From positions 28,321 through 92,320 of the forward strand of contig CAYTAR010000001.1 of assembly GCA_964436015.1 (NCBI GenBank): a stretch of DNA of 64,000 bases, in the 5' to 3' direction. Shown here in pieces: positions 7,029 to 58,298 of this stretch. A model generated the notes under the pieces. The model ran no database searches and was not told the origin of the DNA. It saw nothing but the letters and a program-made list of their open reading frames with translations. Every line of letters starts with the position of its first letter. The stretch's first letter is position 1. The stretch comes from an uncultured Candidatus Saccharibacteria bacterium (GTDB lineage Bacteria > Patescibacteriota > Minisyncoccia > Phycocordibacterales > GCA-2401445). Position numbers and translations under genes: made by a program.

Positions 7029-8147
7029 TTAGTTTTGTGTAAAGAGGGGGACGACAAGTTTGTTGTTGTCTGGATTATCTCCCGAAACCTGTTTGCCAGG
7101 GTCAACATTTATAGTTACTGCTTTTTCACCCGCGGTGACTTGATCAAATGCAATAGTAAATTCAATTCTTTCCCCTGGATTGAGTGATTGTTGTGTATCA
7201 GAGGTATACATGTATGCAGGGTAGGTAGGAAGCTGTGCGCTAAAGTACCAGTTGTTTGCACGTGCAGTTCCTGTGTTTGTTACTTCAAAGCGAATCGCTA
7301 CTCGATCTACACGAGAGAAGCTCGTTGTTGCAGTGTACTCATTAGTAAGTCGGTCAAGTGTTCCAGTATCTAAAAGCTTTGGCTCAAGCTCGGGCTTTCC
7401 ACCAGGAACAGCAGTTGGTGTAGTGTTTGGAACAGGGATTCGTATTACTGTTTCAACAGGTGTTTGCTCAAGTGGCTGTGTTGGTGATTGAGTGCTCTGG
7501 CTTACAGGGAGAGCTATTACTTCTTCAGTAGCATCGGTTGAGGTACTAAAGAGAGAATCAGTATTGAGTGAATTTGAATCACTGCTAGTTGATGTACCGC
7601 TATTCGTTGTTGCAGGTAGAGATTCATTTGTAACAGTAATGGTGTTTGTGCCTCTCACCACAATGGTTGCGCCATCAAAGTAGCTTACAAACACAGATAC
7701 TTCAGCGTTCTGAATAGCTGGTGATGAAAGCGTAACTTGAATAGGCATACTAATATCCTTTATCCTGTAGTATGACCCACAACGTACTTGTTCTTCTGTC
7801 GGACTAAAGATTGCAGTAGGGTCAATTCTGTACGTAACATCAGTTACGCATCCAAATGCTATTGCATAGACTCCATCATCTGATGATGGGTTGTTGTGTA
7901 CGACACTTATTGTTGAACTTCCGCCGGTCTCAAGTAGGGAAGGGTTGACGTTAATCGTAATAGATTCTTCATTACCTGAGAAAAGATTTGTAATGAGAGC
8001 TATACTTCTTTCTGCAATTGAGGCAAGAGTAGGGGATGTTTTAGTTAGAATAATTCCCCAAAAACCTATAGCAAAAAACGCAATAACTACCACACTGGTG
8101 ATAAGTGCAATTTTCGCACGTTTTTCTGTTTTTTCTTTGTTTTCCAT
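7029..8147 (-). CDS. Membrane-anchored secreted protein with Ser/Thr-rich linker (cell-surface protein, unknown function)
   Basis: N-terminal TM (ALITSVVVIAFFAIGFWGIIL), long S/T-rich low-complexity region, beta-rich C-terminal domain; no homolog recognised. Confidence 0.55.
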   Translation of the reverse strand: MENKEKTEKRAKIALITSVVVIAFFAIGFWGIILTKTSPTLASIAERSIALITNLFSGNEESITINVNPSLLETGGSSTISVVHNNPSSDDGVYAIAFGCVTDVTYRIDPTAIFSPTEEQVRCGSYYRIKDISMPIQVTLSSPAIQNAEVSVFVSYFDGATIVVRGTNTITVTNESLPATTNSGTSTSSDSNSLNTDSLFSTSTDATEEVIALPVSQSTQSPTQPLEQTPVETVIRIPVPNTTPTAVPGGKPELEPKLLDTGTLDRLTNEYTATTSFSRVDRVAIRFEVTNTGTARANNWYFSAQLPTYPAYMYTSDTQQSLNPGERIEFTIAFDQVTAGEKAVTINVDPGKQVSGDNPDNNKLVVPLFTQN

Positions 8148-8199
8148 ATGTTTTTTAGTATACTATCATACTTTTATGCTTATGTCAATAGTCTGATGT

Positions 8200-8228
8200 T
8201 TGACAAAGTTAAAATAATAGTGTATGAT
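8200..8228 (+). promoter_or_regulatory. Sigma70-like promoter upstream of sortase (-35 TTGACA 8200-8205, 17-nt spacer, -10 TATGAT 8223-8228); SD AGGTGAGG at 8241-8248
   Basis: Consensus hexamers and spacing read directly; RBS 8 nt upstream of ATG 8257. Confidence 0.5.
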
Positions 8229-8256
8229 GTTTTATATGAAAGGTGAGGCAATAATA

Positions 8257-8904
8257 ATGTCAAAGGAGGCATTTTATATTTATTTTTTGATGATATCTTC
8301 TGTGAGTATCATTGCGCTTTTTATGATTGGCATACTTCCATTTAAGAACGTGGAGGCTGACAATGTGCCTTTAGAATTGACACCTATAAAGGCAGAAAAC
8401 AGTGTGATTACTACTGAACAAGTGATTATTCCAGACATTGAATCAGGTATGGTTGAGTATCCAGAGTATCCACGAGAGCTTTACATTCCTCAACTTGAGC
8501 GTAGAATCCAAATTAGTAATCCAATTGAGAGTGATTTGAGCGTGTTAGAGCAAGAACTGCTTACTGGCGCGGTACGTTATCCAACTTCAGCACGCGTGGG
8601 TGAGCCTGGAACTGTTTTTATATTTGGCCACAGTAGCTCTTTGCCAGTGGTAAGAAATCAGAACTTCAAAGCATTTAATGGTATACAAAATCTCCATACT
8701 GGTGATCTTGTACTACTGTATTCAGAAACTGCAGAATATACATACGCAGTTAGTTCCGTTCGAGAGGCTACCGTAGACGGTGGAACAGTACCGCTGATAA
8801 GTGATGGTTTTTATCTAGTGTTGTCTACTTGTAATAATTTAAAAAGTAAAGAAGACAGGTTTATCGTTACGGCAGAATTGGTAGCGGTACGTCAATTACC
8901 TTAA
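8257..8904 (+). CDS. Sortase (transpeptidase; ORF track start 8224, RBS-supported start 8257)
   Basis: N-terminal TM anchor; catalytic His in IFGHSSS, catalytic Cys in LVLSTC (TLxTC motif), conserved Arg in RFIVTAELV. Confidence 0.8.
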   Translation: MSKEAFYIYFLMISSVSIIALFMIGILPFKNVEADNVPLELTPIKAENSVITTEQVIIPDIESGMVEYPEYPRELYIPQLERRIQISNPIESDLSVLEQELLTGAVRYPTSARVGEPGTVFIFGHSSSLPVVRNQNFKAFNGIQNLHTGDLVLLYSETAEYTYAVSSVREATVDGGTVPLISDGFYLVLSTCNNLKSKEDRFIVTAELVAVRQLP

Positions 8905-8914
8905 TAACAAATAT

Positions 8915-11701
8915 ATGAAATATTTTTTCGCAATAGTTATAGTGTTCGCAGGACTTGTGTTGCCACAAGTGTCTTATTCAACAGGAGGACACGGCTGTGT
9001 TCTTGAAATCACCAAATCTGTGTCTAAGACAGAGGTAAAGCCTGGTGATTCAGTAGAGTTTACTCTTGATTTTAAGAATAGTGGGACTGGTAACTGTACG
9101 GGAGGAGGAGTTCGAGTACAAGACGTACTTGACTCAAATCTCACCTTTGTGAGCGCTACGAAATCTTCAAACGTGACACTTGGGTATTACAACGGAGTGC
9201 CGTTATACAATTCACAAAACAATACAGTTAGTTTTAATGCAAACACGCTGAGTCCTGGAGAGGTGGGTTGGGCAAAAATTGTTGCAACCGTGAATCAAAT
9301 TTCAGCTTGTGGCATAACTGAGATAAAGAATAAGGCACAGATTACTTCAAAAGAAATAGCGGGAAGCAGTGTAACTTCTTCAAATCCTTCTGTGTGGGTT
9401 ACGAGTAATGAGGTAGTTATGTCATACAATAAAGTATGTACTCCACCCCTTACCGCTATTTGCGAAGCTGACCCTGCATCAGTGCTCACTAATGAACCGG
9501 TTACCTGGTCTGCATTTGCAACTGGAGGAACTGGATCGTACACGTACGCGTGGAGTGGGGATCAAGGATTGAGTGGTGCTGGTGATACGGTAACCCATTC
9601 ATATGGTTTTGATGGAACAAAGCAAGCGCAAGTTATTGTAACTTCTGGGTCAGACCAATATACCGCTAACTGTAGTGTGAAGGTAACTGAACAACCCCTT
9701 TCGGAAGCGTGTCCGTTCGTACCAGCTCTCAATAGAACAATAATTTCTTTTGGTAATAAGAAAATTTTTGCGAATAGAACTCCCGCAGAGACTTATGTTG
9801 GACCAGTATCAGTAACTGTGCCGTCAGGCACCTACGTAGTTAGTTTGGCGTCATACGATGGCTACACGGGACGACGAACAGCGGTACAAACAAGCGAACG
9901 GTGGTTTCTTGAGCTTGCAAACTCAACACAAAAAGTAGAATCGGGCATTATCGCTGATGTTCCAGATCCAACCAATTCTGATTATGCAAAAATTGAGGAA
10001 ATGGTAAATCAAGCACTCTACATACCTTTCGACGTGACTCATGCCTACGCTCGTCACGCGGTTGTTTTTGGTGGAATATCAGGAACTGGAGCAAATAGCT
10101 TAAACCCGATATGTGCATCTCTTGATCTAGTTAATACAGAAACAGATATTTCACTTGTCTGCGAAGCTGACCCTGCATCAGTGCTCACTAATGAACCGGT
10201 TACCTGGTCTGCATTTGCAACTGGAGGAACTGGATCGTACACGTACGCGTGGAGTGGGGATCAAGGATTGAGTGGTACAAGCAGTTCACTTATGAAGTCG
10301 TATACAACGACGGGAGTAAAAAATGCTTCAGTTACAGTTACTTCAGGTACAAAAACTAAAACAGTAGAATGTAGTGTACAGGTCACACAAAGTACAACAA
10401 ATCCACCTTTAAATGCAGTCTGCGAAGCTGACCCTGCATCAGTGCTCACTAATGAACCGGTTACCTGGTCTGCATTTGCAACTGGAGGAACTGGATCGTA
10501 CACGTACGCGTGGAGTGGGGATGGAGGAGTAAACGCTACTACGAGTACCTTTACTAATACATACTCAACATCTGGTACTAAGAAAAATGAAGTAATTGTT
10601 GTTTCTGGTAGTGATCAGGTTACTCGCGAGTGTACCGTTGAGGTAACTTCAGGAGGAACGGGTGGTTCTCCGTTTGATGCAGTGTGTAAAGTAAGTGCGT
10701 CATCTGTGGGAATTGGATCTCTCGTTACCTATACCGCAGAGGCTGTAGGAGGAACAGGAAATTACACATACCTTTGGAGTGGAGATCAGGTTGATGGTAA
10801 TACGCAAGCGGGCGTTAATACTTCGTATACTTCAGTAGGAACTAAAAACGCGAGCGTTGCAGTAACTTCTGGTAGCGAGACCATTTCTTTGTCATGTAGT
10901 ACGTTGGTTACCGGTGGTGGAGGTGGATGTGTGGGTGGATGTGGTGGGGGTGGACCAACACCGCCTGTAGTAACTTTGCTTAAAAAGTTTTTCCCAGCAG
11001 AAGTAGTGCCACAAGATGAGTATCTTTCAATATACTTGAGTGCAGTTCCATACACCGGACTTGGTCCAACAGCTAAGACGATGATCGTTATCCTCTCTGC
11101 GTTAGTTTTGAGTGCTGGAATTGCATTTCTTCTTTCAAAGAAAATAGCAACACCAGGTGTTGCGCCACTTCGCACAAGAGATGCTCGTACAGAGAATCAT
11201 CCGCTTGCATCGTTTGGTATATTTGAACGGTCTGAAGTAAAGAATACTTCAAAACCTTACACGGAGTTTCTTCCAACTGAAGGCGAAATTCCTTCATACA
11301 TGCGACACGACGCTCACGAAGATACGACTAACGTAAATTATGAAAATGGTTTAAAAGCTACTACTCACACGGTGCATAGTGATGCGCGCGCACTGCTTAC
11401 CGCAATCGCACACAAAGATAGTGGTTCTGCCTTTGCGATTATTCGTGCAGAGCGTGCAAATGAGGTTAAGTTTGCAGAGTACATGACCGAAGTGGTATCT
11501 GCGCTCGATGCGGTATACCGAGAACGAATTGAAGGTAAGTATGCAAATGCAGACCATGAACTCAGTATGTTGTTCTCACGTTGGAGTAGTGAACAATTGG
11601 AGAGATTGATTACTCAGTTACTCCGTGCGGTAAATATGACCTATGCCGATGCGTACACCGCAACTCAGTTAGCTCTCGTTAGTGCACTCAATACTAATTA
11701 A
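8915..11701 (+). CDS. Large surface protein with signal peptide, four PKD-like repeat modules, Gly/Cys-rich stalk, internal sorting-signal-like segment (VPYTG + TM + KK) and 190-aa C-terminal domain
   Basis: Signal peptide MKYFFAIVIVFAGLVLPQVSYS; repeated CEADPASVLTNEPVTWSAFATGGTGSYTYAWSGD modules; GGGGGCVGGCGGGGPTPP; VPYTG-LGPTAKTM-IVILSALVLSAGIAFLL-SKK; adjacent to sortase. Confidence 0.75.
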   Translation: MKYFFAIVIVFAGLVLPQVSYSTGGHGCVLEITKSVSKTEVKPGDSVEFTLDFKNSGTGNCTGGGVRVQDVLDSNLTFVSATKSSNVTLGYYNGVPLYNSQNNTVSFNANTLSPGEVGWAKIVATVNQISACGITEIKNKAQITSKEIAGSSVTSSNPSVWVTSNEVVMSYNKVCTPPLTAICEADPASVLTNEPVTWSAFATGGTGSYTYAWSGDQGLSGAGDTVTHSYGFDGTKQAQVIVTSGSDQYTANCSVKVTEQPLSEACPFVPALNRTIISFGNKKIFANRTPAETYVGPVSVTVPSGTYVVSLASYDGYTGRRTAVQTSERWFLELANSTQKVESGIIADVPDPTNSDYAKIEEMVNQALYIPFDVTHAYARHAVVFGGISGTGANSLNPICASLDLVNTETDISLVCEADPASVLTNEPVTWSAFATGGTGSYTYAWSGDQGLSGTSSSLMKSYTTTGVKNASVTVTSGTKTKTVECSVQVTQSTTNPPLNAVCEADPASVLTNEPVTWSAFATGGTGSYTYAWSGDGGVNATTSTFTNTYSTSGTKKNEVIVVSGSDQVTRECTVEVTSGGTGGSPFDAVCKVSASSVGIGSLVTYTAEAVGGTGNYTYLWSGDQVDGNTQAGVNTSYTSVGTKNASVAVTSGSETISLSCSTLVTGGGGGCVGGCGGGGPTPPVVTLLKKFFPAEVVPQDEYLSIYLSAVPYTGLGPTAKTMIVILSALVLSAGIAFLLSKKIATPGVAPLRTRDARTENHPLASFGIFERSEVKNTSKPYTEFLPTEGEIPSYMRHDAHEDTTNVNYENGLKATTHTVHSDARALLTAIAHKDSGSAFAIIRAERANEVKFAEYMTEVVSALDAVYRERIEGKYANADHELSMLFSRWSSEQLERLITQLLRAVNMTYADAYTATQLALVSALNTN
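9461..9577 (+). repeat. Intragenic nucleotide-identical repeat copy 1 (117 nt) encoding PKD-like module start
   Basis: tgcgaagctgaccctgcatcagtgctcactaatgaaccggttacctggtctgcatttgcaactggaggaactggatcgtacacgtacgcgtggagtggggatcaaggattgagtggt identical to 10160-10276; antisense ORFs share identical peptide MYDPVPPVANADQVTGSLVSTDAGSASQ. Confidence 0.9.
10160..10276 (+). repeat. Intragenic repeat copy 2 (117 nt, identical to copy 1)
   Basis: Direct reading of sequence. Confidence 0.9.
10421..10522 (+). repeat. Intragenic repeat copy 3 (~101 nt identical, then diverges)
   Basis: Direct reading of sequence. Confidence 0.9.
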
Positions 11702-11712
11702 TTCATATAAAT

Positions 11713-11740
11713 AAAAAAATGCCCGATAGGGCATTTTTTT
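11713..11740. terminator. Bidirectional rho-independent terminator between convergent surface-protein gene and dnaE
   Basis: aaaaaaatgcccgatagggcattttttt: stem atgccc/gggcat with flanking A/T runs. Confidence 0.7.
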
Positions 11741-14700
11741 ATGCTTCCTTTGACACAAGTTGCTTTACTTTCTCAATAATTATACTTGGTGTTCCGTTGC
11801 GTTTGGAAAGCTTTCCTTTAACCGCTACGCATGTATCAAGTGCAATTATGTTACCGTATTCAACACACACATCTGGAAATACGACCGCTTCTATTGTTGC
11901 ACTGTAATCTGCAATAGAGATAAACATCATGTGCTTACCTTTCTTTGTAATTATCGGCTTTACTTCTGTGATAATGCCTGGAACTAAAACAGTGCTTCCT
12001 TCAAATCCTGATGTTGCTATGTGGGAGATGGTTGTGGTTTGTTTTGAAAAAATATCAGGAAACGCATCAAGCGGGTGACCGCTAATGTATAAACCAAGTA
12101 GTTCTTTTTCCCACGCAAGAAGTGTACTTGGAGGGAGTTTTTCTGCTTCAGGAAGCTTGATATCTTCAATAGATGTCTCAATAGTAGAGAAAAGCGAATC
12201 TTGATTAAGGGGCTTTCTAGTGGCTTCGCGATTATATGCGAGCAGGTTTTCCAAATGCATTAAGAGCGATGAGCGTTCACCAAAACTATCTAGTGCTCCC
12301 GCTTTGATTAATGATTCCAGTGATTTCTTGTTGAGGTTCTTATCAGTGATACGTGATAAGAAGTTTGAGAGAGAGGTAAAGGCACCGCGCTCTTCACGTT
12401 CAGTAATGATTGAATGGGCGATACCCTCACCAAAATTTTTAATCGTCGTGAGACCAAAACGAATGTGTTCAGTTTTGTCTGATTCAATAACTGAAAATCC
12501 TTCAAAACTGTAATTTACATCAGGTGGGAGAACTGGGATATTCATTCGCTTACACTCGCTAATTATTTCACTTATTTTTTCTACATCGCCTGATTCAGCG
12601 GTGAGAACAGCGGACATGTAAATTGCAGGGAAATTTGCTTTCATGTATGCCGTTTGATACGCCACCCGGCCATAGCTTGCCGCGTGCGCTTTGTTAAAAC
12701 CGTATGCGGCAAAAGGCTCAATTAACTTCCACAGCTTTTCACTTTTCTCAGTACTTAACCCACCAGCAAGGAATCCAGTTCTTAATTTTTCCTTCTGTGC
12801 TTCCATTTCTTCAGGTATTTTTTTACCCATAGCCTTACGTAGCTTGTCTGCTTCAAGCCATGAATAACCCGCAAGGTGAATCGCAATAAGCATGACGTCG
12901 TCCTGATAGGTAATTACACCGTATGACTGTTCAAGTATTGAGCGGAGTCTTTCATCTAGGTACGTTACTAGTTCAGGATTATGTTTTCGTTCAATGTATT
13001 GCGGAATCGACTCCATCGGTCCTGGTCGGTAGAGGGCAACCATTGCGTTGATGTCGTGTATGGTTGAAGGTTTAAGTTCTTTAAGAAATCGAGTCATGCC
13101 GGTACCGTTTAGCTGAAACAGACCTACGGTTTCTCCCCGAGCAAGCATTGCAAATGTTTTCTTGTCAGTGAGATCAATTTTTTCTATATCTATATCAATG
13201 TTTTTGTACTTTTTCACTCGAGCGACTGCATCCGCGAGAATAGAGAGGTTCCGCAAGCCAAGGAAGTCGAATTTTAAAAGCCCCGCATCTTCAACCCCGT
13301 GCATATCATACTGTGTAATGAGCTTCATTTCGCCCTTTGTATCAAACTGGAGTGGGGTAAAGTCAGTAAGTGTGGTTGGAGCAATTACTACACCAGCCGC
13401 ATGCACTGAAATGTGTCGTGCGCATCCTTCAATCTTTTTTGCCATATCAATAATCTCCTTCACCTCATCATCCGATTTGTAGAGTTTCTTTAGTTCCTCT
13501 TCAATTTCAAGGGCTCGGTCAAGCGTCATGGGAAATCCTTGTGAGCCCATAGGGATCAGTTTAGCTATTCTATCGCCAATGGTGTATTCAAAACCGAGCG
13601 CACGAGCAACGTCACGAACTGCACCACGTGCCATCATTGTTCCAAATGTTCCAATTTGAGCAACACAATCTGCACCATACTTAGCTCTGGCATACTCTAT
13701 CATTTCATCTCTCCTTATATCGGCATAATCCATATCAATATCTGGAGCAGAAGGTCGTTCGGGGTTAAGGAATCGCTCAAAGGGAAGTTTATACTCAAGT
13801 GGGTTTACGTTGGTAATACCAGAAAGGTAGGTAACTAGTGACCCTGCAACCGAACCTCTAATTGTAGTAAGAATATTTTTTGAATGAGCAAAATTAAGCA
13901 AGTCAGCCACTACAAGGAAGTAGGGGGCGTATCCCTTCTTTTTTATAATATCAAGCTCGTACTCAATGCGTGCGGTAACCTCAGGAGTATTCTCAAGGTT
14001 TCTTTTTTCAATTCCTTTGTACACCTTATCTCGAAGCGCATCGTCATGTGTCGGGAAGCCATACGTTTCTATTTGAGGAAATACCCATGTCCCAAGTTCA
14101 AGTTCAACAGTGCATGCGTCTGCAATAAGTGTTGTATTGGTTACTGCTTCGGGAATATATGAAAAAGCCGTACACATCTCATCAATGTTCTTAAATGAAA
14201 AATCTTCATTAGGATTGAGTGTGCGTTCACGTCCGCCACCAGACTGTACTGACATAAGTGTTTGCCGTGCAAGACGGTCTTCTTTTTCTAGGTAGTACAG
14301 TGCGTGTGTTGCAACCACAGGTATGTTGAGCTTTCGAGCAAGCTCAATAGTCGCCTTCATAAAAGTATCATGGTTTTCAAGTTCTGTATGACTAGAAAGT
14401 GCGACATAGAGGTTATCTTGGAATGTTTTTTTGTACCAAGAGAGTAATGCCTCTGCTTTGAGTAAGTCATTATCTCGTATCGCGTGTGCGACATCACTGG
14501 TTTCTGCGGGAACAATGGCAATTAGTCCGTCTTTGTACTCTTGTAACAACTCTTTGTCTGCACGGGGTTTGTAGTAGAAGCCTTCAAGGTGTGCTTTTGT
14601 AGTAATTTGAATAAGGTGCTTATAACCCACATTATTTTTTGCTAGCAGAACCACACGTGTGCGTCTGTTATCAATACCCGCTTGCTTATCAAAACGTGTT

Positions 14701-14921
14701 CTTTCTGCGAGGTAGCAATCGATTCCAAGGATAGGTTTTATGTCATTCTTTTTACACTCTTTATAGAACTCAATCGCTCCATACATATTCCCATCATCCG
14801 TTAATGCGAGCGCGGTCATGTTTGATTTTTTGGCATACGCCACAAGTTCCTTGATTTTCGGTAATGCGGAAAGCAGGCTGTAGTGGCTATGGACGTGCAG
14901 ATGGACAAAGTCTTTTTTCAT
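11739..14921 (-). CDS. dnaE: DNA polymerase III alpha subunit (start chosen at MKKDFVHLHVHS; ORF track extends to 15056)
   Basis: PHP domain HLHVHSHYSLLSA at N-terminus, polymerase core motifs (GLLKFDFLGLRNL, PDIDMD), OB-fold C-terminus. Confidence 0.9.
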   Translation of the reverse strand: MKKDFVHLHVHSHYSLLSALPKIKELVAYAKKSNMTALALTDDGNMYGAIEFYKECKKNDIKPILGIDCYLAERTRFDKQAGIDNRRTRVVLLAKNNVGYKHLIQITTKAHLEGFYYKPRADKELLQEYKDGLIAIVPAETSDVAHAIRDNDLLKAEALLSWYKKTFQDNLYVALSSHTELENHDTFMKATIELARKLNIPVVATHALYYLEKEDRLARQTLMSVQSGGGRERTLNPNEDFSFKNIDEMCTAFSYIPEAVTNTTLIADACTVELELGTWVFPQIETYGFPTHDDALRDKVYKGIEKRNLENTPEVTARIEYELDIIKKKGYAPYFLVVADLLNFAHSKNILTTIRGSVAGSLVTYLSGITNVNPLEYKLPFERFLNPERPSAPDIDMDYADIRRDEMIEYARAKYGADCVAQIGTFGTMMARGAVRDVARALGFEYTIGDRIAKLIPMGSQGFPMTLDRALEIEEELKKLYKSDDEVKEIIDMAKKIEGCARHISVHAAGVVIAPTTLTDFTPLQFDTKGEMKLITQYDMHGVEDAGLLKFDFLGLRNLSILADAVARVKKYKNIDIDIEKIDLTDKKTFAMLARGETVGLFQLNGTGMTRFLKELKPSTIHDINAMVALYRPGPMESIPQYIERKHNPELVTYLDERLRSILEQSYGVITYQDDVMLIAIHLAGYSWLEADKLRKAMGKKIPEEMEAQKEKLRTGFLAGGLSTEKSEKLWKLIEPFAAYGFNKAHAASYGRVAYQTAYMKANFPAIYMSAVLTAESGDVEKISEIISECKRMNIPVLPPDVNYSFEGFSVIESDKTEHIRFGLTTIKNFGEGIAHSIITEREERGAFTSLSNFLSRITDKNLNKKSLESLIKAGALDSFGERSSLLMHLENLLAYNREATRKPLNQDSLFSTIETSIEDIKLPEAEKLPPSTLLAWEKELLGLYISGHPLDAFPDIFSKQTTTISHIATSGFEGSTVLVPGIITEVKPIITKKGKHMMFISIADYSATIEAVVFPDVCVEYGNIIALDTCVAVKGKLSKRNGTPSIIIEKVKQLVSKEA

Positions 14922-14946
14922 ACAGAATAGTATACTATACGAGTAT

Positions 14947-15621
14947 ATGAATCGGCGAAAAATCATTGTTGGGGTTGATGAGGTGGGCCGTGGACCGATT
15001 GCTGGTCCTGTAACGGTAGGGATGGTGGTTATATATAAAACCATTCCCACATCCAAATTGCGGGGACTTAAAGACTCAAAAAAACTTTCAGCAAAAAAGC
15101 GTCATGAGTGGGTGGGGAACATACATACATTACGGTCTAAAGGATATTTGACATTTGATTGTGTCTCTATTAACGCAACAGAAATTGATTCAAAAGGAAT
15201 ACGGGCTTGTGTAACGAAGGGGGTAAAAATGCTTGTGAGAAGGCTTAAATTGCATCCAGAAGGAGTCGTCATGCATCTTGATTACGGGATTTCAGCGCCT
15301 CCTCAGTTTACTCAGACACAATACGTCAAAGGTGATGAACGTTTTAGTGAGATTGCTCTCGCTTCAATTCTTGCAAAAGAGACTAGAGACGCATATATGA
15401 TTTCACAGGCGCGAGTGTATCCTAAGTACGGGTTTGAACGTCACAAAGGATACGGTACTCTATTTCACCGTAATAAAGTGAGACAGTACGGTCTTTCTCC
15501 GCTACATAGAAAAACCTTCTGCACAAACAGTTTTGCACTATCTAGACAAAAGGGGATTTCAATGGGGGAAAATAGTAGCATGAGGCCAAAAGCTAAGCAC
15601 TTGCCAAAAAAGAGTCTATAG
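14947..15621 (+). CDS. rnhB: Ribonuclease HII
   Basis: IVGVDEVGRGPIAGPV catalytic DEVGRG motif, DSKKLS motif. Confidence 0.9.
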   Translation: MNRRKIIVGVDEVGRGPIAGPVTVGMVVIYKTIPTSKLRGLKDSKKLSAKKRHEWVGNIHTLRSKGYLTFDCVSINATEIDSKGIRACVTKGVKMLVRRLKLHPEGVVMHLDYGISAPPQFTQTQYVKGDERFSEIALASILAKETRDAYMISQARVYPKYGFERHKGYGTLFHRNKVRQYGLSPLHRKTFCTNSFALSRQKGISMGENSSMRPKAKHLPKKSL

Positions 15622-15997: not shown

Positions 15998-16912
15998 TTG
16001 AGAAATATGGCAAATCGGCACCTTTCACGTTCAATTGTTCTTCAGACCCTCTTTGAGTGGGATTTTAATAACTCTCCTAAATCTAATTTTAGCTCAATGG
16101 TTAAGCGTAACATTGAGGAGTTTGCTCCAGGCCTCTCAGACACCTCGTTTATCAATACGCTTATTGATAGTATTGTTCAAAAGAAACCCGATTTGGATTT
16201 AATAATTCAAAAAGCTGCGCCCGAGTGGCCTATTGATAAGATATCAATAGTTGATAGAAATATTCTTAGAATTGGTTTATATGAACTTCTTTTTTCAGAC
16301 AGAAAGGAAGTTCCGGCAAAAGTAGCTATTAACGAATCTGTTGAACTAGCTAAGGCTTTTGGAGGAGAAAATAGTAGTAAGTTTGTTAATGGTGTTCTTG
16401 GTGCAGTGTACAAAGAAATCGGTGAACCGGGCAAGGATGAGGTAAGTAAAAAGAAGCAAAAGAAGAGTATTCCAGATATTCCTTACGAAGAAATGCCTAT
16501 TGAAAAACTAGGGGGTGCGGTTGTGTATTCAAAACATGAGGGAGAAATATATCTCGCACTCATTCATGACATCTTTGGCCACTGGACTCTTTCTAAAGGT
16601 CACTACAAAGAGGGAGAGGATGATGCATCAGGAACTGCTCGGGTAGTGTTAGAGGAAATGGGGTTAGGTGGTTTGGTGCTTAAAGATGAGCTTGGAAAAA
16701 ACGAGTACATTGCAAAAAATCCAGAAAAGGGAAAGATACGAAAACAGGTAGTATATCACTTGGCAGAAGTTCCGTATGCGCCAGTTGTTCTTGGAAAAAA
16801 ACAAGGATTAGATGATGCACGATGGTTTAAATTAACTGAAATACTTGACCTTAATTTTTATGACGATATACTGCCACTTATAACCAAAGCAGTTGGTATA
16901 TTAACAGCATAA
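15998..16912 (+). CDS. nusB: NusB (N-terminal ~150 aa) fused to a C-terminal NUDIX hydrolase domain
   Basis: NusB-like helical N-domain (RSIVLQTLFEWDF...DRNILRIGLYELLF..PAKVAINESVELAKAFGGENSSKFVNGVLG); C-domain carries Nudix box GHYKEGEDDASGTARVVLEEMGL (Gx5Ex7RxUxEExGU, with V at the RE position). Confidence 0.75.
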   Translation: MRNMANRHLSRSIVLQTLFEWDFNNSPKSNFSSMVKRNIEEFAPGLSDTSFINTLIDSIVQKKPDLDLIIQKAAPEWPIDKISIVDRNILRIGLYELLFSDRKEVPAKVAINESVELAKAFGGENSSKFVNGVLGAVYKEIGEPGKDEVSKKKQKKSIPDIPYEEMPIEKLGGAVVYSKHEGEIYLALIHDIFGHWTLSKGHYKEGEDDASGTARVVLEEMGLGGLVLKDELGKNEYIAKNPEKGKIRKQVVYHLAEVPYAPVVLGKKQGLDDARWFKLTEILDLNFYDDILPLITKAVGILTA

Positions 16913-35338: not shown

Positions 35339-36409
35339 ATGAAGAAATCTAAAAAAATAAAAGTTGCGCTTGTTGGTATAGGAAATTGCGCAAGTTCTCT
35401 TGTTCAAGGTGTTTCATTTTATTCAAGATCAGAAAATACGACAGTCGGGTTAATGCATCCCAATTTTGCCGGATTTAAGGTGTCTGATATTGAATTTGTT
35501 ACCGCGTTTGATGTCGATAAAAGAAAAGTGGGAAAAGATCTCGCAGAAGCAATATTTCAAAAACCTAACTGTGCCAAGAAGTTTCAAGGGGTTGAACTAT
35601 TAAATATCAAGGTATTGAAGGGACACGTTTTAGATGGTGTAGCACCTCATATGCAAGAATACTTTATTGTCGATGACGAACAGAAATCAGTTGACATTGC
35701 GCAGGAATTACATAAAAGCGGCGCAGAAATGCTCATCTCTTATTTACCAGTGGGTAGTGCTGAAGCGTCGAGATTTTATGCTAATGAGGCAATAAAGGCT
35801 GGAGTCGGATTTATTAACGCTATTCCTGAATTTATTTGTTCTAAGCCAGAATGGATAGCTAAATTTAAAGAAAAAGGAATACCTTGTGCTGGTGATGATA
35901 TAAAATCACAATTTGGCGCAACTATTTTGCATAGGATTGTAACAAGATTTATTGAAGATCGTGGACATAAGATTGATAACACATATCAATTAAATATCGG
36001 CGGGAATACAGATTTTTTAAACATGAAAGATGAAAGTCGATTGGCTTCAAAAAGATTATCAAAAACGAATGCGGTGACTTCAATACTTGGAGAAAAAGAG
36101 TTCGGGGTTCGAATTGGTCCTAGTGATTACATACCACACCTTAATGACAATAAAATTTGCTATATAAATGTTAAAGGTAAACAATTTGGAGGACTACCTT
36201 TTGAATTAGATATTAAATTAAGTGTTGAAGATAGCCCGAATAGTGCTGGTGTTATGATAGATGTTATTAGAGCCATGAGAGTTGCCCTTGATTGTGGAAT
36301 CTCGGGAAACTTAGAAGCAATTAGTGCATACTATTTTAAGTCACCAGAAGTTCAATATAGAGACGATATTGCTAGGACAATGGTTGAAGACTTTATCAAT
36401 TTTAATTAA
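35339..36409 (+). CDS. ino1: myo-Inositol-1-phosphate synthase (short archaeal/bacterial type, 356 aa)
   Basis: NAD-binding KVALVGIGNCASSLVQG (yeast Ino1 LVGLGGNNGSTL), QLNIGGNTDF (SYNHLGNNDG), SKRLSKTNAV (SKEISKSNVV). Confidence 0.8.
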   Translation: MKKSKKIKVALVGIGNCASSLVQGVSFYSRSENTTVGLMHPNFAGFKVSDIEFVTAFDVDKRKVGKDLAEAIFQKPNCAKKFQGVELLNIKVLKGHVLDGVAPHMQEYFIVDDEQKSVDIAQELHKSGAEMLISYLPVGSAEASRFYANEAIKAGVGFINAIPEFICSKPEWIAKFKEKGIPCAGDDIKSQFGATILHRIVTRFIEDRGHKIDNTYQLNIGGNTDFLNMKDESRLASKRLSKTNAVTSILGEKEFGVRIGPSDYIPHLNDNKICYINVKGKQFGGLPFELDIKLSVEDSPNSAGVMIDVIRAMRVALDCGISGNLEAISAYYFKSPEVQYRDDIARTMVEDFINFN

Positions 36410-36418
36410 TAAGATTTT

Positions 36419-37639
36419 ATGATTTACATACATAAAAAAGAATTATTAGAGCCTGAGTATGAATTTGTCGAACGTAAAGGTCTTGGACACCCAGACACCT
36501 TGTCGGATGCTCTTGCTGAGTTTTTGTCAGTTAACTATTCAAACTATACTCTGAAGAATTTCGGCGCAGTCTTACATCATAATTTTGATAAAGTTGGATT
36601 ACTTGGAGGTGCTTCATTTGTAAAATTTGGTGAGGGATACTTAACAAAACCTATAAGAGTATTACTTAACGGTCGCGCTTCAACAAAATTCGGGGATAAA
36701 AATATTCCTGTTGAAGATTTGTTAAAATCTTGGGTTAGTGAATTTCTGCTAAACAAATTTAGAGATCTAATAAAAGAAAGTGATCTGGAAATTCATTATA
36801 ATTTAAGTACTCAAAGTAGCCCTGGTAAAACTGAAGACTTTAAGTCTACAAATACTCCTCGAAAGTTTTGGTTTGAACCAAGAAATTTTGACGATCTTCC
36901 GGAGACTAAAAAATTATTCTCCAATGATACTTCTTTGGGTGTAGGTTACGCTCCTCATTCTAAATTAGAGAGACTTGTTTTAGATATTGAAGAAACTTTA
37001 AACTCTAAGAGTTTTAAAAAGGATCATCCGTGGATAGGATCCGATATTAAAATAATGGGCACGAGGCATGGTCAGCAGTTTGGTATAACTTTATGCATAC
37101 CGCAAATAGCTAACTACGTACATTCGGTTGATGAATATAGACAAAATTTAGAGCAGACTAAACAAGTTATTTTCAGGATTTCTCAAAATGTTGGAATAAA
37201 TAATCTTGAGTTATCGTGTAATACTCGTGATAATTTAGAGACAAAAGAACTTTATCTTACGGCGATCGGTTCATCAATAGAAAGCGGTGATGAAGGTTTG
37301 GTTGGTAGAGGGAATAGAGTAAACGGGATAATTTCACCTACAAGACTTATGAGCATGGAAGGGGCTTGCGGTAAAAATCCTGTTTATCATATCGGCAAGA
37401 TTTACTATGTGGCTGCCAACGAGATTAGTAAAAAAATATTTGAAAAGTTTGGCGTCGCAAATGAAGTTTCTTTGATTAGCCAAAGTGGCCGAGATTTACT
37501 TGATCCATGGAAGACCTTCGTTACTTTATACAATTCAGATATAAGCGAAGAACTGGTTCTGATTTTTGTTGAAAACGAGTTAAAAAATATTCCAGAAATA
37601 ACCAGAGGCCTATTAGAGAATAAATTAAGGCTATTTTAA
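36419..37639 (+). CDS. mat: S-adenosylmethionine synthetase, archaeal type (PF01941-like), 406 aa
   Basis: Near-colinear with archaeal MAT: [79 protein letters not shown]; lacks bacterial MetK GHPDKIxDQISD and GGGAFSGKD motifs. Confidence 0.85.
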
Positions 37640-37650
37640 ATTTTAATGTT

Positions 37651-38775
37651 ATGGAAAAGATGCCTAATCAAGAAAAAGAAATAACAAGACTGGAATATTT
37701 GACTACCCATGTTGGTCTAGTCAGGCAACTTGATGAAAAATATTTGCTTGATGAGAAAGTATATTCAACAGATATTCAAAATGAAAGCTTATTAGAACAC
37801 ATACCGACAATTAAGCCGGATAGAGTGATTAGACAGGAAGGAGACACGACTATTTTTACTTCAGCTGGTATTCAGCACCTTGAAACTCTTGAACGTGACA
37901 AAATTAATTTAGAAAGGGAGAAGTTCAAAATTGCACAACCGGTTGTTCGCAGTCAGTTTATGGATAAGATCAAAGAAGGTTATTCGACATCTTTTATAGA
38001 TGAGGCCACCACTCAACTCGGAGTATCTGATGAAGATTTTTTTAGTATGTGTAAACAAATGGTAATCAATTCGTTAAATCATGATGCGGATATACAAAAA
38101 TACCATTTAACAATTGAGGCTCAGGATGATCGTTGGGGTCAAAAAAAGTTCACCAAATTAGTCGTTACTTTGTATTATGATGGGAACGAAGTGTCAGAAG
38201 GTGTATATATAGATAAATTTCCTAAAATTGATGGGCAGACTGTCTCTGTTGCCGAAACAACCCACAGCGCCGAAAGATTTAATTGGATTCACAGAGAAAA
38301 TCGAGACCGACCATATTTTATTGGCTTTGAAGAATTCTATAATACTGATAATAAAGATGATGTCGCAAGAATTATAGATCCCGTCAGAACTGCTACATTG
38401 ATGCTCATGCAAGGAGTTGTTCCATCACATAAGGATCCCGGATTCAGATTAAGACAGCTGATTAAAAGATTTGTGGAAAGAAATGCCGAGACTTCTTTTT
38501 CTGAAGATAGACTTTTAAATTTATCACATGATTTTTGGTTAGGAAATAACGTTGAAGGAATTGTTGATAAGGTCGAGATTCGTGAATTGTTAAAGAAAGA
38601 AATGACACGTGCTCAAAATGTACACATTGTCAGTTGGGTCGAGATAAATACTGGTAAGAAAATTAAGGTTGATGTGAATCTAAGCACAGATGAATTTCTT
38701 AAAAGGATCTATTCTTCATCACCAGAGGAGATTATTGGGGTAGTAAAAAGTATTAATTTAAAAAAATATGAGTAA
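37651..38775 (+). CDS. Alanyl-tRNA synthetase catalytic-domain paralog (truncated, 374 aa; motif 3 degenerate) - putative amino acid ligase
   Basis: Colinear matches to E. coli AlaRS N-terminal region: TTIFTSAGIQ (LLFTNAGMNQ), AQPVVRSQ (SQRCVRAG), RIIDPVRTATLMLMQGVVPSHKDPGFRLRQLIKRFVER ([39 protein letters not shown]); position of DTGMGLERI occupied by ETTHSAERF; no editing or C-Ala domains. Confidence 0.7.
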   Translation: MEKMPNQEKEITRLEYLTTHVGLVRQLDEKYLLDEKVYSTDIQNESLLEHIPTIKPDRVIRQEGDTTIFTSAGIQHLETLERDKINLEREKFKIAQPVVRSQFMDKIKEGYSTSFIDEATTQLGVSDEDFFSMCKQMVINSLNHDADIQKYHLTIEAQDDRWGQKKFTKLVVTLYYDGNEVSEGVYIDKFPKIDGQTVSVAETTHSAERFNWIHRENRDRPYFIGFEEFYNTDNKDDVARIIDPVRTATLMLMQGVVPSHKDPGFRLRQLIKRFVERNAETSFSEDRLLNLSHDFWLGNNVEGIVDKVEIRELLKKEMTRAQNVHIVSWVEINTGKKIKVDVNLSTDEFLKRIYSSSPEEIIGVVKSINLKKYE

Positions 38776-39445
38776 ACTTTTTTTAAGCGGTGGTGGCGAT
38801 ATAGAGACATCTTATCCGTTCGATAGTCTATTCTTTGATTCACTGCCACAGAGCGCGAATATTCTTTATATTCCCATTGCAATGGCAACCACCATGGCTA
38901 GAACAGAAGCATCTTTTGACTGGTTTTCAAAATTGATTTCAAGTCATTCAAGTAGCGACAAACACTTGGACTTTACTGTGTGGAATACTGGAGATTCTTT
39001 ACCTATCCTACATAATTACAATGCTGTATATGTTGGTGGTGGTAATACATATAGACTCTTGATGATGTTAGAAAAACCAGGAATGCTTGATGCTCTAAAA
39101 AAATATATCAGAAATGGTGGTATCTATTATGGTGGGAGCGCCGGTGCCGTGATTGTTGGTAAAAGCTTACGGACAGTGGATGAAGAAAATTTAGAAAATT
39201 ATTCAAAGCGTGATGGTATGAATCTTATTAATAATCTTTCTATATTCCCACATTTTTCAGATAGTGAGGAGCAAAAAAATATCATTAGAAATATCTGTGG
39301 CAATTATGCTTTAACGATAGCCGCGCTTCCTGAAGGCTCAGGTCTTGTTCTCGATGAGCGAGGCATAAGTGTTTACGGTAATATGTATTTATATGAACAA
39401 GAAAAGAAAACTCTTTTTTATACATCTGGGCAAATTATCAAGTAA
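38768..39445 (+). CDS. Peptidase S51 family protein (peptidase E / cyanophycinase-like serine hydrolase)
   Basis: VYVGGGNTYRLL, nucleophile motif YGGSAGAV, His in IFPHFSD; overlaps upstream gene by 8 nt. Confidence 0.7.
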   Translation: MSKLFLSGGGDIETSYPFDSLFFDSLPQSANILYIPIAMATTMARTEASFDWFSKLISSHSSSDKHLDFTVWNTGDSLPILHNYNAVYVGGGNTYRLLMMLEKPGMLDALKKYIRNGGIYYGGSAGAVIVGKSLRTVDEENLENYSKRDGMNLINNLSIFPHFSDSEEQKNIIRNICGNYALTIAALPEGSGLVLDERGISVYGNMYLYEQEKKTLFYTSGQIIK

Positions 39446-40595
39446 TTCTGGTCATACAGCGCGATTGCGGTATGAGTTAAAGGATATCAGCAAGACGGCG
39501 GATATTTCGATTCTGTCTTTGACAAATGAGCCTGACCAATCTTTCATCAATAAAAATCCAAATATACATTTTTATGTTTTGCCGATTAAGTTTAATGGCT
39601 GGAAAGTCGTTAATTTGGGTCATATTGTAGGGCAGATAAATGAAATAATCAGCTTTTGTAAGCCAGATATTGTTATTTTGTGTGTTGAGATCTGGGATTT
39701 AATTTTAGGGTTACATAAAAAAATATCTGACAAAGTAGTGTTTTGTGCTATATGCCACGCAATGCCATTTTTGGGTTCACCCTTGAATCCAACAAAATCC
39801 TTTGAATCAGATGTAAGGAAATTTGCTAATAAGCAAACGCTAAAATACAGAAAAAACTATATTACCAAACATTACAGAGAATTTCCTAAAATTATAAACT
39901 CTGGCTTACTAATTGCAAATAATGCAACCGTTGCTTTTTATTTCAAAAATTATTTCCCGAGGTCATCGTTTTGGAGACAAGTGCCTCATGTTACAGTTGA
40001 TCCGCTTAAAACGTCTAAAACCCTAGATATTGAGTATGATTTTTGTTATATGGCGAGAATGGAGAAAGGAAAAGGAGTAGAATATCTGCAAGATTTGTTT
40101 AGCAGAATTTCAATCAAGTTGGGTAGAAAAATCAGTGTGGCAATCATGGGCAGAGCTGATGATAAGTACTCCCAAGAAGAACTTAGAGGGCTACTTGAAA
40201 GTGAAGGTGAATCTTTTTCCGTTCGTTTTTTCGGTTGGGCTGATGATAAAACCAAAGCTGAAGTGTTGAGTAAAAGTGGTTGTTTTATTTATCCGTCAAC
40301 TTACGATAATTTTCCGACAGTGGTTAATGAAGCTATGGCTCATAGCTTACCTGTGGCAATGTGGGATACTCTTTTTTATAAAGTTAACTATTCTGACATA
40401 AAGTCTGTATCTGTGGCTACTCCTTTTAATGTTGAGCATCTGGCTTCAGTGGCCGTGAATCTGTTACAAGGAAAATCTACCTTACGTCGCCATTCTATAG
40501 AATACATAAAGGAAAATGGTGGCTCCAGATCAGTCGCAAAAGATGATCTTATACTATTTGATGAGATAATTAAGCGTTATGAAAGAAATAAATAA
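39393..40595 (+). CDS. Glycosyltransferase family 4 (GT-B; MshA/PIG-A-like retaining GT); ORF track start 39369
   Basis: C-terminal GT4 signature FIYPSTYDNFPTVVNEAMAHSLPVAMWD (EX7E-type motif). Confidence 0.8.
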   Translation: MNKKRKLFFIHLGKLSSNSGHTARLRYELKDISKTADISILSLTNEPDQSFINKNPNIHFYVLPIKFNGWKVVNLGHIVGQINEIISFCKPDIVILCVEIWDLILGLHKKISDKVVFCAICHAMPFLGSPLNPTKSFESDVRKFANKQTLKYRKNYITKHYREFPKIINSGLLIANNATVAFYFKNYFPRSSFWRQVPHVTVDPLKTSKTLDIEYDFCYMARMEKGKGVEYLQDLFSRISIKLGRKISVAIMGRADDKYSQEELRGLLESEGESFSVRFFGWADDKTKAEVLSKSGCFIYPSTYDNFPTVVNEAMAHSLPVAMWDTLFYKVNYSDIKSVSVATPFNVEHLASVAVNLLQGKSTLRRHSIEYIKENGGSRSVAKDDLILFDEIIKRYERNK

Positions 40596-44457: not shown

Positions 44458-45138
44458 TTAACGAATTGATTCAATAAGTTCAATCATCTGATGCAAAGAT
44501 CGTGTACCTTGAATTTCACCAACAATATTCTTGTCTTTATAAACAAGCATAAATGGTGCACCTTGTGCCCCCGCATCTATTGCCTCAGTAGCATGCGTAC
44601 GTATCTTGTCGCTTAGGCGTGGATTACGCTCACATTGAGTTAATTGATTTTCACTAAGGGAGTGTAAATTAGCGATACTTTTAATAAAAGATACATGGTC
44701 TATGTTTTGAGGTAGGGGCTTTGCATTATGTAGCGCATCGAGCATATTCCAAAATCGGTAAGGTTCAGTATACATTGAACTCACACATTCAAGTGCGAGC
44801 GCTTCTCTTGGTGAATTTGGATTCTCGTTTGCAATGGGGAAGTGTCGGTAGACCCACGCAAGCTCTCCTTTCTTTCCGTAAGTTTCCATGAGTTTTCGTA
44901 CCACCGAGACATGGAAAGCAACACAGTACAAGCACTCTGTATCAGAGTACTCTACAATGACAATAGGGGCATCAGGATTCCCAAGCCAGTGATCTTCTGC
45001 GACTGAGGGGGAGTTTGTACCTGCAACTACCGTAGTATTGAGTATTGGAGCCGGTTCATCCGGAAGCAATAAAAAAGCGATTGCAATAATGACCGATGCT
45101 ACTATAACCGCTTTGTCACGAGCTTTAAAAAAAGTCAT
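44458..45138 (-). CDS. DsbA-like thioredoxin-fold thiol:disulfide oxidoreductase, membrane-anchored
   Basis: N-terminal TM; CxxC active site in YSDTECLYCVAFH; thioredoxin-fold length. Confidence 0.7.
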   Translation of the reverse strand: MTFFKARDKAVIVASVIIAIAFLLLPDEPAPILNTTVVAGTNSPSVAEDHWLGNPDAPIVIVEYSDTECLYCVAFHVSVVRKLMETYGKKGELAWVYRHFPIANENPNSPREALALECVSSMYTEPYRFWNMLDALHNAKPLPQNIDHVSFIKSIANLHSLSENQLTQCERNPRLSDKIRTHATEAIDAGAQGAPFMLVYKDKNIVGEIQGTRSLHQMIELIESIR

Positions 45139-45191: not shown

Positions 45192-45986
45192 GTGAATATA
45201 ACTGATTCAATTATACTTGGGGTGGTTCAAGGGATTACTGAGTTTCTGCCAATTTCGTCAACCGGACACTTAATTCTCATGCGAGATTTTTTTGGTATCG
45301 CTGATACAGACGGTCTTGCGTTTGATGCAATACTGCATCTCTCAACCGCGCTCGCTATAGCCTTTTTCTTTAGAGTAGATATTGCTCGTATGTTACAAAA
45401 AATTCTGCGCCCCATTAATTTTATCCGAACAGGTGGTGTCAGACTTCTTGCGCCTTATATAATTGCAGGTGTTCCGGTAGTTATTGTAGGTTTGCTTGCC
45501 GAAGGGTATATTGAAAGTATATTTAGATCAAGCACTCTTGTTGCATTCATGCTTATTGCGGGGGGAGTGTTGTTTATTGTCTCTGAAAAAGTAGGGGACA
45601 AACGTCCCGCTCAAACAAACACCGTATCAATTAAACAGGCTTTCTTTATAGGACTTCTTCAAGTACTCGCACTTATCCCAGGAATGTCACGCTCAGGGTC
45701 TACTATCAGCGCGGGACTTATTTCTGGTGTGTCTAGAACGACTTCCGCGCGCTTTACTTTTCTTATGGCGCTTCCATTACTAATTGGAGCGGGTGCAAAG
45801 AAGTTTTTTGATATCAGCGGTGATGCTTCTTTTGAGTACGCTCCACTTATTGTTGCTTCTCTCACTTCGTTTGCTGTTGGGTATATTTCACTCAGGTGGC
45901 TGATGAGAATTCTTTCAAAAAAGTCGCTTATTCCTTTTGCGGTCTATCGTTTTGTACTTGCAGGAGTAATACTTGCCTTTTTCTGA
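45192..45986 (+). CDS. uppP: Undecaprenyl-diphosphatase
   Basis: LGVVQGITEFLPISSTGHLIL, PGMSRSGSTISAGL motifs; 8 TM profile. Confidence 0.9.
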   Translation: MNITDSIILGVVQGITEFLPISSTGHLILMRDFFGIADTDGLAFDAILHLSTALAIAFFFRVDIARMLQKILRPINFIRTGGVRLLAPYIIAGVPVVIVGLLAEGYIESIFRSSTLVAFMLIAGGVLFIVSEKVGDKRPAQTNTVSIKQAFFIGLLQVLALIPGMSRSGSTISAGLISGVSRTTSARFTFLMALPLLIGAGAKKFFDISGDASFEYAPLIVASLTSFAVGYISLRWLMRILSKKSLIPFAVYRFVLAGVILAFF

Positions 45987-46007
45987 TAATTATGTTATAA
46001 TATATAT

Positions 46008-47458: not shown

Positions 47459-47462
47459 AGGT

Positions 47463-53949: not shown

Positions 53950-53953
53950 TGTT

Positions 53954-54976: not shown

Positions 54977-55015
54977 CGTTTTGCGCTATTTAAGCTACGC
55001 CGTATAATACAGTGT

Positions 55016-58297: not shown

Positions 58298-58298
58298 T

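Follow-up and report, generated by a model that had tools for sequence, protein, structure and literature searches.

The subject of this analysis is a pair of adjacent genes in a 64,000-nucleotide stretch of contig CAYTAR010000001.1, from an uncultured Candidatus Saccharibacteria bacterium, a groundwater-type member of the Paceibacteria with a tiny genome (the window, by which we mean that whole stretch; coordinates refer to it unless a locus from another genome is named). The first gene encodes a sortase (8257–8904, + strand), and the second, which begins 10 nt 3′ of the sortase stop codon, encodes a putative dedicated sortase substrate, a 928-residue type I membrane protein (8915–11701, + strand, single frame). 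The two are enclosed by a promoter-like region at 8160–8228 and by a hairpin terminator-like site at 11711–11742 (no strand assigned), the latter lying between the substrate gene and a convergent dnaE gene, and this arrangement fits one transcription unit. The promoter-like region is divergent, with TTGACA-17-TATGAT on the + strand (8200–8228) and TTGACA-17-TAGTAT on the − strand (8188–8160), both found by a consensus scan only, which is no sign of function.

The sortase is a 215-residue protein with an N-terminal transmembrane anchor, and it matches Pfam PF04203 at 62.9 bits (cut-off 26.6, E = 3e-17). Its open reading frame (ORF) in full spans 8224–8904, with an alternative upstream start at 8224; the ATG at 8257 was taken as the likely start because an identical 215-residue public protein exists (P0155) and because the promoter-like site ends at 8228. 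In this 215-residue form the catalytic residues are His124, Cys192 and Arg201, and the motifs GHS, STC and DRF stand at residues 124, 190 and 200, respectively. Specifically, FGHS, LSTC and DRF align with the catalytic residues of Bacillus anthracis SrtA, which also provided the best PDB sequence match (2kw8, E = 1e-7). These motifs are kept across 60 aligned orthologs, and the clear His/Cys/Arg signature reported in an earlier, sequence-only reading of this stretch is therefore confirmed. Looking up the window proteins and P0155 by exact sequence gave no matching record, and a phage megablast search gave no match.

With respect to the substrate, the same reading had described a signal peptide, four PKD-like modules and a Gly/Cys-rich stalk, and each of these was found where it had been placed. 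The signal peptide and ectodomain occupy 8915–10969 (+ strand) and match the Pfam families DUF11 (47.4 bits, cut-off 24.6), PKD_4 (34.7 bits, cut-off 27) and SprB. The signal peptide corresponds to residues 1–22 and is followed by a CLIPPER/DUF11 domain at residues 30–147, a domain type that bears intramolecular isopeptide bonds (PMC12617251). The four PKD-like modules (residues 181–664) each contain a Cys pair and share a GGTGxYTYxWSG core, located at residues 204, 437, 524 and 612, and a 150-residue insert (residues 263–414) follows the first of them. The ectodomain closes with the Gly/Cys stalk GGGGGCVGGCGGGG at residues 665–685 (10907–10969).

Beyond the stalk lies the juxtamembrane motif YLSAVPYTG (11033–11059, + strand), in which VPYTG itself occupies 11045–11059 (residues 711–715) and which conforms to a family consensus of YLSQ[IV]PYTG. 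It is followed by an 8-residue spacer (LGPTAKTM), a 17-residue hydrophobic helix (IVILSALVLSAGIAFLL), the basic residues SKK and a further 185 residues. The layout of a cell-wall sorting signal is thus present, namely an xPxTG motif with a hydrophobic helix within ~10 residues and basic residues after it, just as the sequence-only reading had proposed, and this layout is kept in homologs. The signal is internal rather than at the extreme C-terminus, with 185 residues following it here and 190–370 residues in homologs. The transmembrane helix (residues 724–740) and SKK (11084–11143, + strand) have a hydropathy score of 2.77, follow the family transmembrane consensus and were modelled by AlphaFold2 as a helix with a predicted local distance difference test score (pLDDT) of 85–96. 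Next come a cytoplasmic linker (residues 744–818; 11144–11368, + strand), which is predicted to be disordered (pLDDT <50) and is the least conserved region, and a C-terminal six-helix domain (residues 819–928; 11369–11698, + strand), whose modelled fold is that of clamp-loader (DnaX) domain III. The corresponding outside/inside topology is consistent with the sequence, since all 16 Cys residues of the substrate precede the motif, basic residues come after the transmembrane helix and the window contains a DsbA-like gene.

Comparison with other proteins confirms the continuity of this frame. The public set holds an identical 928-residue protein (P0001), and a 943-residue ortholog from a different metagenome-assembled genome (L081) shares 53% identity, aligns end to end and has the same architecture; the tail is therefore neither a product of a frameshift nor a gene of its own.

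An exhaustive HMMER search with the tail of the substrate against 1.84 billion cluster representatives (E ≤ 1e-3) matched 201 of them, in proteins of 122–1509 residues, and the matched region was always C-terminal. A word-indexed homolog search gave no match for the tail itself and only 7 for a profile; the few relatives of the tail that carry a database name are called ‘hypothetical protein’. Among the best 150 matches, 131 have xP[YFI][TS]G before the transmembrane helix, in the versions IPYTG (55), VPYTG (52) and LPYTG (13) for the most part. Within these 131 homologs, P and G of the pentapeptide are conserved at 100%, T at 98% and Y at 94%, and the four residues preceding it are nearly as conserved (Y/S/T, then L at 94%, S at 74% and Q at 82%). 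The remaining 19 of the 150 are mostly short, N-terminally truncated fragments, with two exceptions (P0120 and P0139) that are considered below. Joint conservation of the xPxTG motif and the C-terminal domain, which the sequence-only reading had left to a homolog search, is accordingly seen in 131 motif bearers and 201 matches to the C-domain.

The conserved module begins with A.VYLSQ[IV]PYTG[LF], continues through a transmembrane helix of the form ..YW..L..WS...AY and ends in a C-domain with the consensus F..AL..GD...VF..LR.....G.....F...VV..LD.AYR.R.EG...LE..I..L..AVD.SY....TG.KLAL.RAL. Mean top-residue frequency is 0.85 in the motif block, 0.48 in the transmembrane helix, 0.45 in the C-domain and 0.24 in the linker; no other part of the module is as well conserved as the motif block in the 131 homologs, and a chance origin of the motif is thereby excluded. 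Within the 50 residues before the motif, a poly-Gly run is present in 158 of 180 members and a CxxC-like pair in 108 of 180, and this poly-Gly stalk is reminiscent of the Gly/Pro regions that span the wall in Gram-positive surface proteins. Some homologs contain the motif in tandem near-copies, for example ‘IYLSQTPYVSTSSAIYLSQIPYTG’ in P0060.

The ectodomain, by comparison, is variable and dispensable among orthologs. Its domain types include PKD, CLIPPER/DUF11, SpaA-type prealbumin folds, dockerin and He_PIG, and its size ranges from ~18 to ~1800 residues, with ~47 to ~1800 residues between the N-terminus and the motif. In L017 and L002 only ~18–20 residues separate the predicted signal-peptidase site from YIYLSQVPYTG, and in L003, L013, L059 and L075 the ectodomain consists of a low-complexity G/D/S/P stalk only; the sortase is retained in all six. 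The PKD-repeat part that made the protein a giant in the sequence-only reading is thus not what is conserved; the ectodomain varies, and the conserved core is the motif, the transmembrane helix and the tail.

The coupling of this module to the sortase was explored by a pattern-plus-tblastn scan of one genome per GTDB species, which gave at least 80 loci; counts given here refer to the 80 that were listed. (A first contig scan with a single tail sequence had found no locus.) All 80 belong to Patescibacteria, under the names Kaiser-, Taylor- and Nomurabacteria, Paceibacteria and Minisyncoccia. In 59 of the 80, the substrate gene is preceded on its own strand by a gene for a sortase ortholog (phmmer E 1e-23 to 1e-43 against the window sortase). 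Among the 21 loci without an upstream sortase, 18 have a substrate ORF truncated at the end of the contig and 2 more offer less than 0.5 kb of upstream DNA, so that a sortase with an intact triad is found directly upstream in essentially every locus having upstream DNA. The reverse direction gave the same picture, with three of three sortase homologs from a sortase-seeded search preceding a PYTG protein. Moreover, neither the window nor the sequence flanking the 80 loci was found to contain another ORF that combines xPxTG with a transmembrane helix.

The gap between sortase and substrate falls into two classes, a short one of ~0–170 nt, as in the window, that belongs mostly to the VPYTG subgroup, and a long one of ~0.7–1.5 kb that belongs mostly to the IPYTG subgroup. 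The long gaps (~40 loci) hold an extra secreted protein of ~280–350 residues that matches no Pfam family and is absent from the window; examples are L083:7026–7874, L004:5907–6812 and L014:4766–5815. On the other side of the sortase, and divergent from it, the window encodes a 372-residue, N-terminally membrane-anchored CARDB-like protein (7029–8147, − strand; Pfam CARDB, E = 5e-6), and 52 of the 80 loci have a homolog of it in the same divergent position. The general order is gyrB, the CARDB-like gene, the sortase, the substrate and, further on, dnaE and rnhB, with gyrB present in 45, dnaE in 61 and rnhB in 50 of the 80 loci. The cassette is thus a vertically inherited, apparently single-copy core locus in the gyrB–dnaE interval.

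Additional insight is offered by variants that consist of the tail only. P0120 and P0139, which form independent clusters, are proteins of ~280 residues that comprise the N-terminus MTxTGTQLxxYLxxVA, a transmembrane helix, a linker and the C-domain, and that lack a signal peptide, an ectodomain and PYTG. The gene for P0120 (L085:427–1275) starts 125 nt after the gyrB stop codon, and that for P0139 (L086 and L087; L086:8001–8825) is flanked by a P-type ATPase gene on one side and, downstream, by the tRNA synthetase gene that is usual there. None of these three loci was found to contain a homolog of the sortase or of the CARDB-like protein. A third type, L088:943–1539, is a tail-only ORF that lacks even the transmembrane helix; it sits directly beside a CARDB-like gene with no sortase, and the usual synthetase and dnaE genes follow it. 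Because the CARDB-like gene persists there without a sortase, we did not count it as a required part of the system. A metagenome scan for further tail-only variants gave one locus.

The tail-only variants are nearest to the minimal-ectodomain subgroup, as both have the linker motif FRNVE.EP...NMDMNP, which suggests that the two forms belong to a reduction series. Homologs that lose the motif and keep the transmembrane helix and tail had been named in the sequence-only reading as a finding that would refute its proposal. P0120 and P0139 are, taken literally, such homologs; since their loci are also without a sortase, they support the coupling of motif and sortase rather than speak against it. 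These variants indicate that the motif persists only where the sortase does, and that the tail is functional in its own right, with or without its transmembrane helix. In extent, the stand-alone proteins nearly equal the predicted remnant of sortase cleavage.

AlphaFold2 with family alignments produced a confident transmembrane helix, a disordered linker (pLDDT <50) and a six-helix C-terminal domain, and the model of this domain in isolation reached a pLDDT of 90.6 and a predicted template modelling score of 0.83. The ~190-residue helical tail anticipated from the sequence therefore holds in part, in that its last ~110 residues form a confidently predicted helical domain and the ~75 residues before them are predicted to be disordered. 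No Pfam or NCBIfam model matched the tail among 17 diverse members. In a Foldseek search of the PDB, nearly all of the best ~37 matches were clamp-loader subunits, with Escherichia coli DnaX gamma/tau domain III matching at a query-normalised TM-score of 0.79–0.83 and a root-mean-square deviation of 2.3–2.8 Å over ~110 columns (14% identity, E ~4e-3); scores were lower for delta′, B. subtilis delta and RFC/CTF18. In clamp loaders, domain III is the ‘collar’ domain that joins the pentamer.

The likeness to domain III of gamma/tau, delta′, delta and RFC extends over the whole six-helix domain, whereas the AAA+ domains I and II that would precede it in a clamp loader are absent, their place being taken by the transmembrane helix and disordered linker that tether the domain to the membrane. 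Sequence homology, by contrast, could not be established. Only one of the 17 members matches TIGR02397, and marginally so (E = 0.0035). A bona fide dnaX served as comparison sequence (L038:7880–8962; TIGR02397, 328 bits; ~5 kb downstream of the PYTG gene), and the family hidden Markov model (HMM) reached only 4 bits on residues 243–285 of this Paceibacteria DnaX, at the start of domain III. The hhalign probability between the C-domain and DnaX domain III was 1.3%, and HMM searches of PDB sequences with the C-domain family retrieved no DnaX. On the strength of the models, then, the C-domain has a fold resemblance to clamp-loader domain III, homology is not claimed, and from the resemblance we infer only a protein–protein interaction or oligomerisation module.

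Taken together, these observations are most consistent with a dedicated sortase/substrate pair in which cleavage would leave a functional, membrane-anchored cytoplasmic module, a reading in which we place reasonable though not high confidence. The membrane-anchored sortase and its dedicated substrate would form a bicistronic operon conserved across Paceibacteria-type Patescibacteria, the substrate being a type I membrane protein that displays a fast-evolving, Cys-containing Ig-like ectodomain on a presumably wall-spanning Gly/Cys stalk. The precursor would be exported by way of its Sec signal peptide and held in the membrane, where the sortase would cut PYT|G between T and G. The cleaved ectodomain would then be passed to lipid II or peptidoglycan, and a lipid II acceptor should be available, since the window encodes MraY, MurG, FtsW/RodA and UppP. 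The remnant would be a Gly-starting fragment (GLGPTAK...) composed of the transmembrane helix and the cytoplasmic tail, functional in itself, that most likely oligomerises or serves as a scaffold on the cytoplasmic side of the membrane by means of its clamp-loader-collar-like domain. A signalling role for such a system, as entertained in the sequence-only reading, is speculation.

Several observations weigh against this proposal. The window sortase falls under every class cut-off of the NCBIfam sortase models (A–F and GN) and so receives no class assignment, the nearest classes being E (41.7 bits, cut-off 160) and D (25.9 bits, cut-off 165). L065 is the only listed locus in which 2.5 kb of upstream DNA are available and yet contain no sortase. 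The adjacency of sortase and substrate in 59 species does not amount to 59 independent observations, because the whole gyrB–dnaE interval is syntenic. The argument from joint loss is likewise weakened, because the sortase gene lies right at the 5′ end of the substrate gene: one deletion could take out both the sortase and the part of the substrate from the signal peptide to the transmembrane helix, and a single event of this kind could yield L088. Furthermore, ectodomains of ~18–20 residues (L017 and L002) make the anchoring of an adhesin to the wall an odd purpose, and YLSQ and the transmembrane helix are conserved, which is unlike canonical substrates. The misfit of the minimal ectodomains, the conserved YLSQ and the conserved transmembrane helix with simple adhesin anchoring suggests that the processing event or the remnant is what matters. 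As to L065 itself, its 1–2570 interval contains no sortase or CARDB-like gene, a lipoprotein-like 393-residue ORF being found instead, and the contig ends there.

Some of the same features could be accommodated by an uncleaved or conditionally cleaved receptor or tether that connects the surface to a cytoplasmic oligomerising domain, with YLSQ[IV]PYTG acting as a structural or sortase-docking element and the sortase serving mainly other substrates encoded elsewhere in the genome. The conservation of the transmembrane helix and of the four residues before the pentapeptide, unlike that of canonical sorting signals, would be natural for such a protein, as would a large, conserved tail and the survival of the motif in orthologs with minimal ectodomains, and the adjacency to the sortase could be inherited synteny. 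Nonetheless, the near-invariance of the pentapeptide falls at exactly the positions critical to a sortase (P and G at 100%, T at 98%), the motif has degenerated in both sortase-less variants that keep the transmembrane helix (P0120 and P0139), no alternative substrate is encoded near any sortase in the window or the flanks of the 80 loci, and the sortase triad is maintained in all 60 orthologs. We consider this explanation rather unlikely.

A more elaborate version of events would be a sortase-gated bipartite protein, in which cleavage frees the DnaX-collar-like membrane module only during wall building and so couples envelope or surface assembly to a cytoplasmic process. The tie to wall building would follow from the requirement of sortase turnover for lipid II. 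If this were true, the fold and the class-wide location of the locus between gyrB and dnaE would make the replisome or clamp loader a possible candidate for that process, and the tail-only lineages would be constitutive versions of the module. We regard this proposal as doubtful and offer it very tentatively.

We hold it to be just as improbable that the sortase is a pilin-type (class C-type) polymerase that forms a fibre by joining ectodomains head-to-tail or to the CARDB-like or secreted neighbours, the tail serving to cluster precursors. Variants of the form [IV]PxTG are typical of pilin signals, as in RrgB and RrgC of Streptococcus pneumoniae, and the motif here has this form. Conserved extracytoplasmic neighbours are present, a collar-like fold suggests oligomerisation, and several members carry SpaA-type and CLIPPER isopeptide domains (PMC12617251). 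This family, however, lacks a conserved ectodomain and with it a conserved pilin-motif lysine; some ectodomains are only ~18 residues long or purely low-complexity, there is a single substrate gene per locus, and the window sortase scores lower on the class C model than on classes E and D. Finally, a frameshift or assembly error fusing a canonical substrate with a downstream gene, or a chance motif, is plausible only a priori for a sequence derived from a metagenome-assembled genome, no supporting evidence having been found, and is hardly credible given the identical protein P0001, the full-length alignment with the 53%-identical L081 and the same continuous architecture in 80 listed species-level loci and >120 cluster representatives, on which comparative data we reject it.

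A dedicated pair whose cleavage would leave a functional inner module shares much with known sortase systems and departs from each of them. In common with canonical LPXTG substrates of SrtA, the window protein has a signal peptide, a Gly/Pro-rich stalk, xPxTG and a helix followed by basic residues, and it is accompanied by a membrane-anchored His-Cys-Arg sortase and a lipid II pathway. In contrast to those substrates, its signal is internal and precedes 185–370 residues that include a conserved folded domain, the YLSQ segment (positions −4 to −1) and the transmembrane helix are conserved, the pentapeptide has I or V at position 1 and a fixed Y in place of X, and the ectodomain is dispensable. 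Neither the Gram_pos_anchor nor the TIGR01167 anchor HMM matched the substrate at E ≤ 0.1 in Pfam and NCBIfam searches. The class GN ‘marine’ sortase cassettes (TIGR03784) are alike in that one sortase stands beside a single apparent substrate with which it is co-inherited; their target carries its signal at the C-terminus, the window sortase reaches only 14 bits on TIGR03784 (cut-off 158) and belongs to a different sortase clade, and the cassette described here is a syntenic core locus of a class within the Candidate Phyla Radiation (CPR).

Precedent for a membrane-embedded sortase remnant with a biological role comes from Streptococcus gordonii, in which the SGO_1180 two-component system senses the remnant C-peptide (as summarised in PMC11326707). 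That remnant is a short peptide read by a separate kinase, whereas the one predicted here would carry its own conserved cytoplasmic region of ~190–370 residues. By analogy only, the arrangement also recalls ectodomain shedding and regulated proteolysis in single-pass receptors, as with anti-sigma factors and Notch-type proteins, where a juxtamembrane cut separates the outside from the transmembrane helix and the inside; here the presumed protease would be a transpeptidase that also ligates the ectodomain.

The cassette is embedded among housekeeping genes, with rpsB, tsf, pheST and gyrB upstream and dnaE, rnhB, nusB, rnc, smc and rpoBC downstream, in a window with a GC content of ~40%. Peptidoglycan genes at 53837–60945 and 45192–45986 encode an S11 DD-carboxypeptidase, MraY, FtsW/RodA, MurG, an M23 peptidase and UppP/BacA, and the DsbA-like thioredoxin gene lies at 44458–45138 (− strand). 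Two stretches are lower in GC (0.32–0.35 versus ~0.40). The first, 36000–40000, contains genes for an archaeal-type S-adenosylmethionine synthetase (PF01941), a 374-residue ORF with a faint match to alanyl-tRNA synthetase, an S51 peptidase and a GT1 glycosyltransferase, and the second, 46000–50000, encodes an acyltransferase, a FeeM/autoinducer-synthase-like protein, a methyltransferase and a histidine kinase. The ORF at 15998–16912 joins a NusB domain to a C-terminal NUDIX domain. The mechanically called dnaE ORF (11739–15056, − strand, TTG start) overlaps rnhB (14947–15621, + strand) by ~110 nt, which is likely an ORF-calling artefact because the real dnaE start is probably internal (MKKDFVHLHVHSHYS).

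Sortases are common in the CPR, family fam000526 being present in more than half of CPR genomes (PMC6744442). In the open-access papers and preprints searched, no description was found of CPR sortase substrates, of a PYTG motif or of sorting signals placed before a cytoplasmic domain, and literature matches to PYTG motifs were unrelated. The sortase chemistry and the type of signal are known already; what appears to be new is that the signal lies inside the protein, that a conserved cytoplasmic domain is present, that the ectodomain can be dispensed with and that synteny is conserved throughout the class.

A sorting signal at the C-terminus is what defines a sortase substrate, and the remnant that cleavage leaves in the membrane is treated as disposable. 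In the family described here the remnant would instead be a conserved protein of ~200–400 residues, made up of the transmembrane helix and tail, that is kept when ectodomain and sortase are lost. This would point to a second use of sortase chemistry, in which a precursor is split into an outside and an inside part. Annotation pipelines that demand a C-terminal sorting signal will miss such substrates. The C-domain also represents a domain family that has so far gone without annotation and that, as judged from the models, has a clamp-loader-collar fold. The substrate family spans a whole class of ultra-small, mostly uncultured bacteria and identifies a conserved component of the Paceibacteria envelope.

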